From Escherichia phage vB_Eco_F25: a DNA stretch of 64,000 nucleotides. Position numbers and translations under genes: made by a program. The stretch is taken from the sequence record OP870144.1. The stretch is one strand, 5' to 3'. This document shows positions 2,387 through 40,718 of the stretch, piece after piece. The notes beneath the pieces were generated by a model. The model worked only from the letters and a program-made list of their open reading frames with translations, searched no databases and had not been told where the DNA came from. Each line of letters begins with the position of its first letter. Position 1 is the first letter of the stretch.

Positions 2387-3589
2387 TTATTTTGTAATAA
2401 TGTCAAACTGCTCTTTAAAGCAGAAGCTTGAATCTTGATGCTGATACAAAAATTCATAAGCTTTTTCGCGTTCACGGTCATAAAGAGCTCGGTCAGATGA
2501 CAGTTCTTTAATACGTTCAAATGTTGATTCCATGTCATTTTCATCAAACCAAACGATACCGCTATCGTGCGAAATTAATGGAGTATTATCAACACGGAAT
2601 TTTAAATTTTCGCCAGTAGATTTCCAAAATACTGGAATTGTTCCACATGCACCAAGCTCGAGATGAGTATATTCTAAAGAACGCTGTAGATATTTTTTAT
2701 CTAATTTACTCAGCTGATAACCAAATCCGGATTTACTCATGCGTTCAAGCATTTCGCTATTTACATAACGGTCGAGAATTTGCGTCGGCAAATTAGGAGC
2801 AATTTTAATTTGGTCTACTTGATGAAGACGATAATACTCGTATGGAATTCCTTTTTCTTTAATAGGAATGAACGCTGGAGAACGTTCCAGACCTTCCATA
2901 ATAGTACTTAGTCCTGCAGGTTTAAGATGTTTTTCGTGAAAATCAAACATCTGATAAAAGCCTTTCCATGTAGTAGTACGACCAATCCAACGGTTGATAT
3001 TCATGTTAATTTCAGAAACATCTTTCCAGTAAGTTGATCGAACCTTCGCAATATCCATAGGAGGCTGAAAGTTATATACAGTCGGTGCTTCTTCAATATC
3101 ATCAAACAGTGAAACAGTTTCTGGATACCATTCTTTCATTAAAACTTTATTAAAATCGCCATTATCAGAATGGCTAAAAATAACATCAGCTCGACGAACA
3201 GTTTCTTCTAATCCCAAATTTCGACGCAAAGAAAGAGAAGAATGGTCATGCTGATAAACTACAACACGAACCGAAGGTTTAATGTTATCAATAATTTTTT
3301 TATAGTTATTAATCGTGTCTTCTTCAACTGAAGTAGCAGGAACTGAATTGATAACTAGAATATCACAATCATTTACCAACTTAAGTGTTTTATCGTATTC
3401 TTTTGCCAATAAAACCGGAATTGAAAATGATTTATAATCATGCGCGCAATTACGAGTAAATGATTTATCTTTAGCATAAACCAAAGTTACTTCATGACCA
3501 TTTTTAATAAACCAATCACGCTGCTCAAGAGAAAATTTAGTTACACCGCAACCTTCAAGACCTCGAGCCATAAAAATGCATACTTTCAT
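2387..3589 (-). CDS. a-gt: alpha-glucosyltransferase (glucosylation of hydroxymethylcytosine DNA)
   Basis: 400 aa, same length as T4 a-gt; N-terminus MKVCIFMARGLEGCGVTKFSLEQRDWF. Confidence 0.9.
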   Translation of the reverse strand: MKVCIFMARGLEGCGVTKFSLEQRDWFIKNGHEVTLVYAKDKSFTRNCAHDYKSFSIPVLLAKEYDKTLKLVNDCDILVINSVPATSVEEDTINNYKKIIDNIKPSVRVVVYQHDHSSLSLRRNLGLEETVRRADVIFSHSDNGDFNKVLMKEWYPETVSLFDDIEEAPTVYNFQPPMDIAKVRSTYWKDVSEINMNINRWIGRTTTWKGFYQMFDFHEKHLKPAGLSTIMEGLERSPAFIPIKEKGIPYEYYRLHQVDQIKIAPNLPTQILDRYVNSEMLERMSKSGFGYQLSKLDKKYLQRSLEYTHLELGACGTIPVFWKSTGENLKFRVDNTPLISHDSGIVWFDENDMESTFERIKELSSDRALYDREREKAYEFLYQHQDSSFCFKEQFDIITK

Positions 3590-36091: not shown

Positions 36092-36655
36092 TTATTTATC
36101 TAGTTTAGTTATTATAGCTTCTGCGGCAGCTTTTAGCTTAGATGCGGTGTTAATACGATTTTTAATTTCAGTATACGCATCGCCAAGAACATCAAGGCTA
36201 TCAGAATAAACGCTTACACTATTGCGTTCGCTATTTGAAATAGAACCTTTAGTTTTACGATCAAAATCGATGTACACGTCTTGAAGATCACGGGCTGCCT
36301 TCTTTGCATCATCCAATGCATCAAGAGCTTTATTCAAAGCATTAACGTATTTTTTAGTGTCGAACATATTCTTAGAAATTTTAACAGGCGCACGTTCAGG
36401 AGTAGCTAAGGCAGATTTAGGAACCTGAGCGCCAGATGCCAGTTTCTTAGAAATTTTGAAAAATGCTTTATTGAATTTATTTTCTTGACTCATCGTAAAA
36501 GAACTATTATCAATGTTATACATTTCAATAGCTTTAGCTTTCCACTTAAGAAAATCGCCACGGTCTTTTGGGTCCAATTGGAAGAATACTTTAGTAAGTT
36601 CTGCTTCAGATGGTAATTTTGCTGCTTCGGTTAAAAATTCGGCATAGGTTTTCAT
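36092..36655 (-). CDS. capsid-targeted (internal-protein-like) protein, 187 aa
   Basis: N-terminal MKTYAEFLTEA CTS; Lys/Ala-rich. Confidence 0.6.
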   Translation of the reverse strand: MKTYAEFLTEAAKLPSEAELTKVFFQLDPKDRGDFLKWKAKAIEMYNIDNSSFTMSQENKFNKAFFKISKKLASGAQVPKSALATPERAPVKISKNMFDTKKYVNALNKALDALDDAKKAARDLQDVYIDFDRKTKGSISNSERNSVSVYSDSLDVLGDAYTEIKNRINTASKLKAAAEAIITKLDK

Positions 36656-36780: not shown

Positions 36781-37254
36781 TTATTTGATTTGTTTAGCAG
36801 ACCAAATGCGGTCTTTGATGATTTTTTGGAGATCTTCAACATACTCTAGGTCATGAGCATGTGGATTATCTTTGAAACTATAGGCACGGGCTAATTTTTG
36901 GCCTTCGGTTTTAATTACTAAAAGCTCTTTAAGGATAGCTTCATATTTAGCGATAATTCCTTTAACAATATTTTTTTCTTGTGCAGCTTTAGGATCTGCT
37001 TTAGGAGCAGGTTTACCGGAAGGTTTTTCGAAAGCCGCACCAGTAGCAACCAGACTTTTCCAGGCGGTGGTAACATAGTTACCCACAAAGCCTTCAGCTC
37101 TCATATCGTCGTAGAACTTGTACCGGGATTCGTCAGAAGCATCTTTATAAGAATATTTACCAGATTTAATAGCAGCAGTTGCTACAGCGCGAACATCTGA
37201 AGCGGATGCTTCATTTAACACCGCTTCATTTAAAAATTGAGCATATGATTTCAT
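36781..37254 (-). CDS. capsid-targeted (internal-protein-like) protein, 157 aa
   Basis: N-terminal MKSYAQFLNEA CTS-like sequence; late-promoter-like TATAAATA upstream. Confidence 0.6.
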   Translation of the reverse strand: MKSYAQFLNEAVLNEASASDVRAVATAAIKSGKYSYKDASDESRYKFYDDMRAEGFVGNYVTTAWKSLVATGAAFEKPSGKPAPKADPKAAQEKNIVKGIIAKYEAILKELLVIKTEGQKLARAYSFKDNPHAHDLEYVEDLQKIIKDRIWSAKQIK

Positions 37255-37537: not shown

Positions 37538-37644
37538 GCTGTGATATAAGGGGACATTAACAAAACATAAAGATTTATTAATGCCAGTCCTTAAACAGGG
37601 AACATCAGTCCGACGACTTGCCGGTAGCGACCCGGCTTCTTGTT

Positions 37645-37719
37645 TGGTATCCCGCCCTGGGATCGAACCAGGACCGCAAACTTAGAAGGATCGTATGCTA
37701 TCCATTACACCAGCGGGAC
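37645..37719 (-). tRNA. tRNA-Arg (anticodon TCT), CCA encoded
   Basis: Cloverleaf GTCCCGC...CTTCTAA...CCTGG-TTCGATC-CCAGG...GCGGGAT-ACCA. Confidence 0.85.
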
Positions 37720-38353
37720 GTAATTTATTTAAAAGACAAGACAAATCGGAAATCTCATCTTTTTCTAAAACTACCAAATTTTCTAAAGCTTTCCATTTAC
37801 AAAGATCTCTATCTCTTTTATATCCTTTGACTTCTATATAAAAATCATAAGTGGGTAAATAAAAATCAGGAAAATAGAGATGTTCTGAACCTTCCCATTC
37901 GTAAGGAATTGGCTTTATTTTATTAGTATATTTGATATTGTGTTCTTTTAAAAACTTAGCAACTTTTAATTCCCAGGTCCCTTTAAATTTAAACCCGTCA
38001 AACTCATATGTTTTTACTCGACCAGAAACATTAGAAGCAGAATATGAATCAGGATTATCAAGAACAGCTTGCCGCATTCTTTTAGAATGTGCTTCTTTGC
38101 GTTCATTAGACCATACATATCCAGTATTGGCTTTTCTAAGTTTTTCTCTAGTTTTATCAGAGACTTTTATTTCTTTACCTAGTTCTTTGGCTTTGGTAAA
38201 TTGATTACTACCTTTAAGACCATAACGAGGGTTATTAGGGCCGCTCATATCTAATCTATTTGGGTTAGATTTGCACCGTTTTTCATGCTGCTTTAGTGAA
38301 TTTAAATTTTTACATTCTTTAGAACAATATTGACAAAGCATAATTTTCTCCAT
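37682..38353 (-). CDS. free-standing endonuclease: N-terminal Zn finger, NUMOD3, C-terminal PD-(D/E)XK-like nuclease domain
   Basis: CQYCSKEC...HEKRC; TREKLRKANTGYVWSNERKEAHSKRMRQ; FPDFYLP...DFYIEVKG; last 12 codons lie inside tRNA-Arg. Confidence 0.65.
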   Translation of the reverse strand: MEKIMLCQYCSKECKNLNSLKQHEKRCKSNPNRLDMSGPNNPRYGLKGSNQFTKAKELGKEIKVSDKTREKLRKANTGYVWSNERKEAHSKRMRQAVLDNPDSYSASNVSGRVKTYEFDGFKFKGTWELKVAKFLKEHNIKYTNKIKPIPYEWEGSEHLYFPDFYLPTYDFYIEVKGYKRDRDLCKWKALENLVVLEKDEISDLSCLLNKLRPAGVMDSIRSF

Positions 38354-38410
38354 GAATTTTATATAGATATTTATTCATGGAGAAGTTGACTGCTCTACCT
38401 AATCAAAATA

Positions 38411-38484
38411 TGGCCCAGACCAGATTTGAACTGGTAACCTTTCCCTTATGAGGGGACTGCTGCTAACCATTGAGCTACAGGGCC
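38411..38484 (-). tRNA. tRNA-Ile (anticodon CAT; AUA-reading after lysidine modification)
   Basis: Cloverleaf with anticodon loop CTCATAA, T-arm ACCAG-TTCAAAT-CTGGT. Confidence 0.8.
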
Positions 38485-38490
38485 TTGATA

Positions 38491-38548
38491 TGCTGATTGA
38501 CGGAATCGAACCGCAAGTGAGGTGCTCTACCTACTGAGCTAAATCAGC
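38491..38548 (-). pseudogene. tRNA-Thr-like gene lacking most of the anticodon arm (58 nt)
   Basis: Intact acceptor stem, D-arm GCTC-AGTAGGTA-GAGC and T-arm, but only CCTCACTTG between D-arm and T-stem. Confidence 0.7.
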
Positions 38549-38555
38549 GAAATTA

Positions 38556-38642
38556 CGGAGGCGATAGGATTTGAACCTATGAGTCGCCGGAGCGACTGCC
38601 GGTTTTCAAGACCGGTGCATTAAACCACTCTGCCACGCCTCC
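38556..38642 (-). tRNA. tRNA-Ser (anticodon TGA), class II
   Basis: Anticodon stem-loop CCGGT-CTTGAAA-ACCGG; long variable arm; T-arm ATAGG-TTCAAAT-CCTAT. Confidence 0.85.
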
Positions 38643-38644
38643 AG

Positions 38645-38718
38645 TCTCCGCGGCAGGATTTGAACCTACGACATTCTGCTCCCAAAGCAGACGCTCTACC
38701 AAACTGAGCTACACGGAG
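38645..38718 (-). tRNA. tRNA-Pro (anticodon TGG)
   Basis: Anticodon stem-loop TCTGC-TTTGGGA-GCAGA; D-arm GCTC-AGTTTGGTA-GAGC. Confidence 0.85.
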
Positions 38719-38730
38719 TAAATTAAATTT

Positions 38731-38802
<72 letters not shown>

Positions 38803-38808
38803 AAACTT

Positions 38809-38895
38809 TGGTACGAGAAGTGGGACTCGAACCCACAAGGAAATCATTCCGCAGCATTTTAAGTGCTGTGCCTTTACCAATTTGACCATTCTCGC
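38809..38895 (-). tRNA. tRNA-Leu (anticodon TAA), class II, CCA encoded
   Basis: Anticodon stem-loop CAGCA-CTTAAAA-TGCTG; long variable arm; T-arm GTGGG-TTCGAGT-CCCAC. Confidence 0.85.
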
Positions 38896-38896
38896 G

Positions 38897-38969
38897 CTGG
38901 GAATAAAGGACTCGAACCTTTGCATCCTGGAATCAAAATCCAGTGCCTTACCAACTTGGCTAATTCCCA
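38897..38969 (-). tRNA. tRNA-Gln (anticodon TTG)
   Basis: Anticodon stem-loop CTGGA-TTTTGAT-TCCAG; T-arm AAAGG-TTCGAGT-CCTTT. Confidence 0.85.
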
Positions 38970-40030: not shown

Positions 40031-40339
40031 CTATTTTATTCCGCGTGATGCAATTGTGTTCTGCCGTTTAACACCAGTTTGTTTAAAGTCATGATTGTCG
40101 ATTTGATCAGTACGAGCAACTCCGAATGATGATTTGATCTTAGCTTTAGATCCTTTAGTTATAGAAATAAACATCTCGGAAGCCCCTTTCTTAAAGTCCG
40201 AGGCGATTACTTCAACGCCGTTCTTAGCAAGTGACTTCAGAATTGCCTCTGCATACTCATCGTCAAGACTCGTCTGAGTATTAATAACGAATGTCTTTGG
40301 CGCAGCCGCTTCATTGATAAATTCTTTAAATGTTTTCAT
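40031..40339 (-). CDS. capsid-targeted (internal-protein-like) protein, 102 aa
   Basis: N-terminal MKTFKEFINEAA CTS. Confidence 0.6.
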   Translation of the reverse strand: MKTFKEFINEAAAPKTFVINTQTSLDDEYAEAILKSLAKNGVEVIASDFKKGASEMFISITKGSKAKIKSSFGVARTDQIDNHDFKQTGVKRQNTIASRGIK

Positions 40340-40399: not shown

Positions 40400-40672
40400 T
40401 CATTTTAAATAAATTGCGTATTTTTTATAACCCGCTGACTCATGACGAAGACCCTTATCATTAGCAAAACGCTCAATGTTATTAATTTGATTCTGGTCAA
40501 GTTCAGAGATGTCAAACACGAAAAAGTTACGTTTGTTACCAACTGTTACATAGTCAGTTAAATCAATATCATATAGGTAATTGATGTCAGCAATCAAAGT
40601 CTTGACAGCTTTGCTAATTTTTACTTTTTCGTTAAAAGCAGCTTCATTGATAAATTCTTTAAATGTTTTCAT
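40400..40672 (-). CDS. ipI: internal protein I-like, with capsid-targeting sequence
   Basis: ATG at 40672 with SD GGAG gives MKTFKEFINEAA; about 90 aa; located just upstream of 57B as ipI is in T4. Confidence 0.55.
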   Translation of the reverse strand: MKTFKEFINEAAFNEKVKISKAVKTLIADINYLYDIDLTDYVTVGNKRNFFVFDISELDQNQINNIERFANDKGLRHESAGYKKYAIYLK

Positions 40673-40718
40673 TTTATTCTCCAATCACTCATTTGTTTTG
40701 ATAGGGTAATAGTATCAT
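40668..40718 (-). repeat. 51-bp promoter/leader direct repeat, copy 2
   Basis: Exact copy of 39948..39998. Confidence 0.7.

Follow-up and report, generated by a model that had tools for sequence, protein, structure and literature searches.

tRNA-Thr(UGU) gene remnant with a 15-nt internal gap in the tRNA array of Escherichia phage vB_Eco_F25

tRNA genes of T4-like phages and the vB_Eco_F25 locus

The tRNA array of phage T4 is expressed as precursor transcripts, which are cut by RNase P and then undergo 3' trimming and CCA addition. In classical work on psu-b deletions, the T4 tRNA genes were reportedly found to be dispensable in standard hosts, and deletions are said to arise in this region. 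Among tRNAs that function in a truncated form, the D-arm-less and T-arm-less mitochondrial tRNAs keep the anticodon arm and have lost another arm. T4-like phages carry 0 to 24 tRNA genes, with 'pseudo' calls made by tRNAscan (PMC1524935), and the list of T2L array genes in PMC2330249 names no tRNA-Thr. A tRNA-Thr(UGU) without a working anticodon arm has been described as the product of 'amputation' by P2-OLD, by which ACA decoding is lost; the main target is the host tRNA thrU, treated as the E. coli MG1655 tRNA with the UGU anticodon, and phage tRNA-Thr(UGU) relieves P2-OLD toxicity (PMC12445682). In published work, thrU is also a prime target of AriB, the nuclease of PARIS.

The DNA analysed here is a stretch of 64,000 nt from Escherichia phage vB_Eco_F25 (OP870144.1), referred to below as the window. 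A 58-nt remnant of a tRNA-Thr(UGU) gene was found on the minus strand of its Tequatrovirus tRNA array, with tRNA-Ser on one side and tRNA-Ile(CAU) on the other (Table 1). The order of the T4 array is identical: Ser is followed by tRNA-Thr and then Ile, and the homing-endonuclease gene segB separates Ile from Arg. All 58 bases of the remnant are identical to the T4 tRNA-Thr(UGU) gene in the same slot (T4t003, NC_000866, 72035-72110), and exactly 15 nt are missing from it in the pairwise alignment, indicating homology and not chance. By position and identity the remnant is the orthologue of this gene, which agrees with the tRNA-Thr-like identity and the loss of about 15 nt proposed in the initial annotation. 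Compared with T4t003, the anticodon, the anticodon stem and the variable loop (positions 36-50) are gone and the T stem has been shortened. Downstream of the remnant, the spacer on the 3' side reads ATATCAA without CCA, as in phages KFS-EC3 and HEMP5, whereas T4 has ACCAA.

Table 1. Coordinates of the remnant and neighbouring features in the window
Feature	Coordinates	Strand	Basis
tRNA-Arg(UCU), intact, end of ~1-kb block	37645..37719	(-)	ARAGORN, Rfam
223-aa zinc-finger and T7-endonuclease-I-like nuclease ORF, in the T4 segB slot	37682..38353	(-)	PHROG, PDB, distribution
tRNA-Ile(CAU), intact, downstream neighbour	38411..38484	(-)	ARAGORN ('Met'), Rfam; T4 annotation tRNA-Ile
tRNA-Thr(UGU) remnant, 58 nt	38491..38548	(-)	Rfam tRNA, ARAGORN-negative, T4 identity, fold
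Deletion junction, between T34 (38515) and C51 (38513)	38513..38515	(-)	Pairwise and multiple alignments
tRNA-Ser(UGA), intact, upstream in transcript	38555..38643	(-)	ARAGORN; Rfam 62.6 bits
~1-kb block: Ser, Thr remnant, Ile, endonuclease ORF, Arg	37643..38643	(-)	Base-by-base comparison with contigs L010 and L012
tRNA-Pro, intact	38644-38718	(-)	ARAGORN, Rfam
tRNA-Gly, intact	38731-38802	(-)	ARAGORN, Rfam
tRNA-Leu, intact	38809-38895	(-)	ARAGORN, Rfam
tRNA-Gln, intact	38896-38969	(-)	ARAGORN, Rfam

The locus belongs to a known kind, a dead tRNA gene in a T4-like array, and what is specific to it is the early stage of decay and which tRNA is concerned. Like the pseudogenes and variable sets of other T4-like phages (PMC1524935; T2L, RB1 and RB3 in PMC2330249), it represents the loss or decay of a single gene within the array, but at the earliest stage, with one deletion and an identical intact haplotype in circulation. 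In T4 psu-b-type deletions one or more whole genes are removed, while here 15 bp are lost within one gene of a different, natural T4-like phage. In contrast to the mitochondrial tRNAs, it is the anticodon arm that is destroyed, and unlike the conserved tRNA-like stable RNAs encoded by T4 rnaC and rnaD, the remnant has a junction without a second occurrence in the collections searched. P2-OLD cuts RNA on both strands of the anticodon stem and leaves two unjoined fragments, whereas the change in vB_Eco_F25 is a DNA deletion that leaves one continuous 58-nt molecule (PMC12445682); a link between the two was considered and rejected, as the end points differ and OLD acts on RNA.

The size of the tRNA repertoire in the relatives' loci examined was 2 to 10 genes. 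In HEMP5 (L005) and in contigs L012, L013 and L014, the endonuclease-carrying arrays lack tRNA-Gln and have an ORF instead, and tRNA-Gln is kept in the window and in contigs L010, L011 and L015. The array of phage sutha has additional Tyr and Asn tRNA genes and that of GRNsp7 an additional Tyr gene; only two tRNAs were present in the fetched loci of Dhakaviruses. The CAU tRNA of KFS-EC3 (L004, 2022-2093) is strongly divergent from tRNA-Ile(CAU) of the window (38411-38484), with about 26 differences starting 12 nt into the gene (window 38472).

Structure of the remnant and extent of the deletion

In the Infernal search with the Rfam tRNA model RF00005, the remnant was matched at 38491-38548 (-) with 41.1 bits (gathering score 29; E = 2.8e-5 over the 64-kb window), and these bounds coincide exactly with those of the initial annotation. 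In the alignment to the model, positions 27-43, that is 17 positions of the anticodon arm, are represented by 2 nt. Since the score comes from three arms only, it shows ancestry and not function, and a covariance-model match above threshold can be a dead gene, which is a warning for annotation. ARAGORN made no tRNA call at 38491-38548 in its run over the 64-kb window; seven intact tRNAs were called (Arg, Ile/'Met' CAT, Ser, Pro, Gly, Leu and Gln), with a gap of 70 nt between tRNA-Ser and the CAU tRNA. The reading of the latter as a lysidine-type Ile(CAU) follows PMC1524935. The intactness of the neighbouring tRNAs, already described from the sequence, was borne out by both ARAGORN and Rfam.

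The remnant RNA can be written as GCUGAUU-UA-GCUC-AGUAGGUA-GAGC-A-CCUCACUUG-CGG-UUCGAUU-CCG-UC-AAUCAGC-A. The acceptor stem GCUGAUU/AAUCAGC has seven perfect base pairs with the discriminator A73 present, and the D arm (GCUC-AGUAGGUA-GAGC) is canonical; both had been noticed before and are seen in the Rfam alignment as well as in the predicted fold. The T arm reported earlier is present with its loop UUCGAUU intact (tested against a 5-bp stem with a GTTCRANYC loop), but it is shortened, its first two stem bases having been deleted, and the stem is cut to three G-C/C-G pairs and one G-U pair, with a U-C mismatch at the fifth pair. The linker between the D stem and the T stem, given as 9 nt in the initial annotation, is actually 10 nt long and consists of A26 and CCUCACUUG, the latter made up of the anticodon stem's 5' strand and C32-G35. 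No CCA is encoded, and the same is true of the intact allele of relatives.

Folded in isolation, the remnant is predicted to form an acceptor stem of 7 bp and D and T stems of 4 bp each, connected by an unpaired linker (-16.4 kcal/mol), and it folds likewise, with acceptor, D arm and short T arm, within a transcript of tRNA-Ser, the remnant and tRNA-Ile. The intact allele of KFS-EC3 forms a textbook cloverleaf (-25.4 kcal/mol, z = -3.05). An anticodon stem-loop presenting a 3-nt anticodon is absent from the remnant according to Rfam, ARAGORN and the T4 alignment, and a full cloverleaf was restored by none of the covariance models or tRNA finders tried: the covariance model skips the anticodon arm and ARAGORN is negative. 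With the anticodon destroyed and the 3' stem strand gone, the earlier description of a non-decoding remnant holds.

The same 15-nt gap seen against T4 was found in the alignments with KFS-EC3, HEMP5, GRNsp7 and sutha, and the ancestral allele reads GTAATGAGGACGTCG across the missing stretch. Numbered as in a tRNA, the gap covers positions 36-50 or, equivalently, 35-49, as G35 and G50 are indistinguishable; the anticodon has accordingly lost U36 (G35 in the equivalent alignment). From the anticodon arm, the deletion takes away the last anticodon base together with the 3' half of the loop and the 3' strand of the stem; beyond the arm, it removes the variable loop and two bases at the start of the T stem. 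The anticodon stem keeps its 5' strand, and four bases of the anticodon loop remain. The proposal that most of the anticodon arm is deleted is thus correct for the 3' strand and part of the loop, and has to be extended by the variable loop and the two T-stem bases.

Direct repeats and hairpin symmetry were considered as the cause of the deletion and rejected, since the end points share a microhomology of 1 nt only and are asymmetric relative to the anticodon hairpin. With so little homology a slippage mechanism is not assignable, and the deletion, judged from its end points, appears to be an illegitimate event. A second lesion at the 3' end, where ATATCAA stands in place of the T4 sequence ACCAA with its encoded CCA, was likewise rejected: the intact genes of KFS-EC3 and HEMP5 share ATATCAA, indicating allelic variation and not decay.

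Distribution and origin of the deletion

The 16 kb around the remnant gave many Tequatrovirus matches at ~95-96% identity among phage records and none at >=99%. A 44-mer spanning the junction had 0 matches in 50,697 phage records, and in the 475 phage records that covered at least 80% of a 98-nt query, the best matches span 111-113 nt and so contain the extra 15 nt. A junction 30-mer was absent from IMG/VR, from JGI metagenome contigs and from 185,579 GTDB genomes (one per prokaryotic species). In addition, the exact protein of the neighbouring endonuclease was looked up in public assemblies; 13 contigs carry it, and ten places were returned. The junction was present in none of the fetched endonuclease-carrying contigs, and tRNA-Thr(UGU) was intact in nine of the nine that reach its position.

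Two of these metagenomic contigs match the window base by base. Contig L012 (SRR9113730) is identical to it from 38643 to 37643 and contig L010 (SRR33880960) from 38649 to 37643, in each case save the missing 15 nt, GTAATGAGGACGTCG; by this comparison they represent the undeleted ancestral haplotype. The remnant has no substitutions relative to the intact alleles, indicating that the deletion is very young. The preferred reading, to which a probability of about 0.77 is assigned, is that the deletion is private to one genome, recent and loss-of-function, and that the locus is an ordinary tRNA pseudogene. It would then be a tRNA pseudogene at time zero, with a single lesion and an intact parent haplotype still in circulation.

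Because the deletion is known from one sequence, it may be a mutation of the laboratory stock or an error of consensus or assembly. An artefact, in which the real tRNA-Thr is intact and the 15 nt were lost, for example, by mis-polishing at glucosyl-hmC or by the collapse of a mixed population, is an unlikely explanation that still deserves some weight. It would account for a junction found in no other sequence searched (phage records, IMG/VR, JGI, GTDB genomes and endonuclease contigs) and for the occurrence in L010 and L012 of a haplotype that has the 15 nt and is identical in all other respects, and long-read sequencing of T-even DNA is reportedly difficult (PMC13096335). However, a clean loss of 15 nt with perfect flanks and no homopolymer or repeat is untypical of errors, and no 15-nt-spaced repeat able to collapse a de Bruijn graph was found. 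Long ORFs in the window, among them the baseplate ORFs of 575, 660, 1032 and 601 aa, are without frameshifts, indicating that the assembly is not error-ridden.

The ORF in the slot of T4 segB matched PHROG 15137 'endonuclease' with E = 1.2e-40 and PDB 1m0d with E = 1.5e-5, and its match to Pfam Phage_endo_I was below threshold. Its product of 223 aa has an N-terminal zinc-finger-like motif (CxxC...HxxxC) and a C-terminal T7-endonuclease-I-like catalytic signature (E...PD...ExK). Close copies among the 50,697 phage records were found only in HEMP5 (100%) and two Dhakaviruses (three records, 97-98%); one Karamvirus has a copy at 67%. The gene always lies inside or adjoining tRNA genes. Between Tequatrovirus and Dhakavirus, the block of tRNA-Ile, ORF and tRNA-Arg is 97% identical and its flanks are about 70-75% identical, a pattern that is characteristic of a mobile cassette and fits a free-standing homing endonuclease. 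At its end, stop codon included, the endonuclease ORF shares 38 nt (37682-37719) with the 5' half of the tRNA-Arg(UCU) gene, which lies on the same strand, and an equal overlap was observed in Dhakavirus IME341 (L006), where the CDS ends at 3172 and ARAGORN places tRNA-Arg at 3135-3209.

The deletion could be a product of homing-endonuclease activity, either as a repair scar left when the cassette was acquired or as protection from the phage's own enzyme or a rival of the SegB type. SegB cuts inside tRNA genes at a T-arm motif (PMC2330249), and enzymes of this type, which cut within tRNA genes, cause rearrangements of the array (PMC2330249, PMC13096335). Judged by the collection of phage genomes alone, the deletion seems to sit where two parental sequences meet in a mosaic: HEMP5, the only 100% match there, is identical to the window for 960 nt rightwards of the junction (38514-37555) and has six differences within 42 nt to the left, while KFS-EC3, followed from window 39064 to 38473, has two substitutions and the 15-nt gap only and diverges thereafter. 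Yet the joint haplotype is also that of L010 and L012, in which tRNA-Thr is intact. The joint is therefore older than the deletion, which came later and independently. On the strength of these contigs, with the same flanks on both sides, a scar of the homing cassette or of the recombination joint was rejected. The window is a fine-scale mosaic, and a joint within about 60 nt of the deletion would be expected by chance in roughly 1 of 10 cases (an estimate).

Self-immunity to the neighbouring nuclease was also rejected. Apart from the window, the identical endonuclease occurs in ten sequences that extend to this position, namely HEMP5 and nine contigs, and tRNA-Thr is intact in all ten, so the deletion is needed neither for self-immunity nor for carrying the endonuclease. 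As to a rival enzyme, the recognition core of SegB, GGTTCGATTCC, is still present in the remnant, and the published SegB cuts lie at the 3' end of tRNA genes, outside the deleted part (PMC2330249). A homing-endonuclease product is therefore very unlikely, and the 223-aa nuclease does not appear to be the cause of the deletion; a random double-strand break elsewhere, followed by sloppy repair, may have been the physical cause.

In the weakest alternative, the remnant would be a tRNA-like RNA that has no anticodon but has been selected for a new function, perhaps as a decoy or competitor for enzymes recognising the acceptor/T-arm or in the manner of T4 RNAs C and D. This would fit the stable fold of the three arms, the Rfam score above threshold and the possible inhibition of AriB by competition from some overexpressed viral tRNAs (PMC12409363), but it is scarcely credible for a singleton without conservation in the collections or the endonuclease contigs, without compensating changes, and with an asymmetric deletion that spares half of the anticodon stem, cuts into the T stem and is thus not a clean removal of an arm.

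Expected fate of the remnant and alleles of tRNA-Thr

RNase P and the CCA-adding enzyme require only the coaxial helix of acceptor and T arm, and E. coli ThrRS depends on G35, U36 and the first acceptor pairs. For a pseudogene of the kind preferred here, general tRNA biology predicts co-transcription with the neighbours in the precursor of the tRNA array. Since the acceptor/T-arm helix is kept, the remnant is probably still excised, which would yield a tRNA-like fragment of 58-61 nt, free tRNA-Ser at its 3' end and tRNA-Ile at its 5' end and allow the maturation of both to continue. The fragment would not decode and is expected to be a very poor substrate of ThrRS; given the reliance of this enzyme on G35 and U36, it should be essentially uncharged. 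That a stable, CCA-tailed RNA of 58-61 nt benefits the phage by competing for a host factor or a defence nuclease, or that the loss of tRNA-Thr is advantageous in some hosts, is highly improbable.

Counted over 27 long ORFs in the window, 31% of the Thr codons are ACA, which occurs 19.5 times per 1000 codons. The reading of ACA in this phage would now be wholly dependent on the host thrU tRNA, and little cost is expected from the loss in permissive laboratory hosts. Because host thrU is the target of P2-OLD and AriB, the loss of tRNA-Thr would remove a likely counter-defence back-up against cleavage of the host tRNA-Thr(UGU) by P2-OLD and by AriB of PARIS. T6 carries tRNA-Thr and is nevertheless strongly restricted by OLD and PARIS (PMC13096335), so the protective value of a T-even tRNA-Thr, and hence the cost of losing it, may be small. 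The phage and its undeleted twins of the L010 and L012 type constitute a natural, nearly isogenic pair; as recent work identifies phage copies of tRNA-Thr(UGU) as countering P2-OLD and PARIS, this pair could be used in plain hosts and in hosts carrying P2-OLD or PARIS for gauging the worth of a T-even tRNA-Thr.

At least four alleles of the Tequatrovirus tRNA-Thr(UGU) were observed, differing only at positions 27, 43 and 45 (L001-L005, L010-L017; window 38522). The combination C/G/T is that of T4, C/G/C was found in KFS-EC3, L010, L012 and the ancestor of the window, and A/G/C in L015 and L016. The allele A/A/G of GRNsp7 and HEMP5 has a 27-43 mismatch and fits the published description of the OLD-resistant 'tRNA-Thr6'. 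The latter, the best rescuer from OLD, differs from thrU at 12 bases including G30C/C40G and U43A (PMC12445682), and exactly those 12 differences separate the GRNsp7-type Tequatrovirus allele from MG1655 thrU; the sequence of tRNA-Thr6 itself was not found in the text or supplements of PMC12445682. The ancestral tRNA-Thr allele of the window, unlike the GRNsp7 type, has a C27-G43 pair. This variation suggests diversifying pressure on the anticodon stem of tRNA-Thr.

The array is flanked by four ORFs (36092-36655, 36781-37254, 40031-40339 and 40400-40684, all on the minus strand) whose products share the N-terminal motif MK(T/S)(F/Y)xEF(I/L)xEA, preceded in two of the four, as listed, by the few residues of a MENK leader. 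This motif resembles the capsid-targeting sequence of T4 internal proteins, and the four ORFs probably encode internal head proteins that form a variable set.
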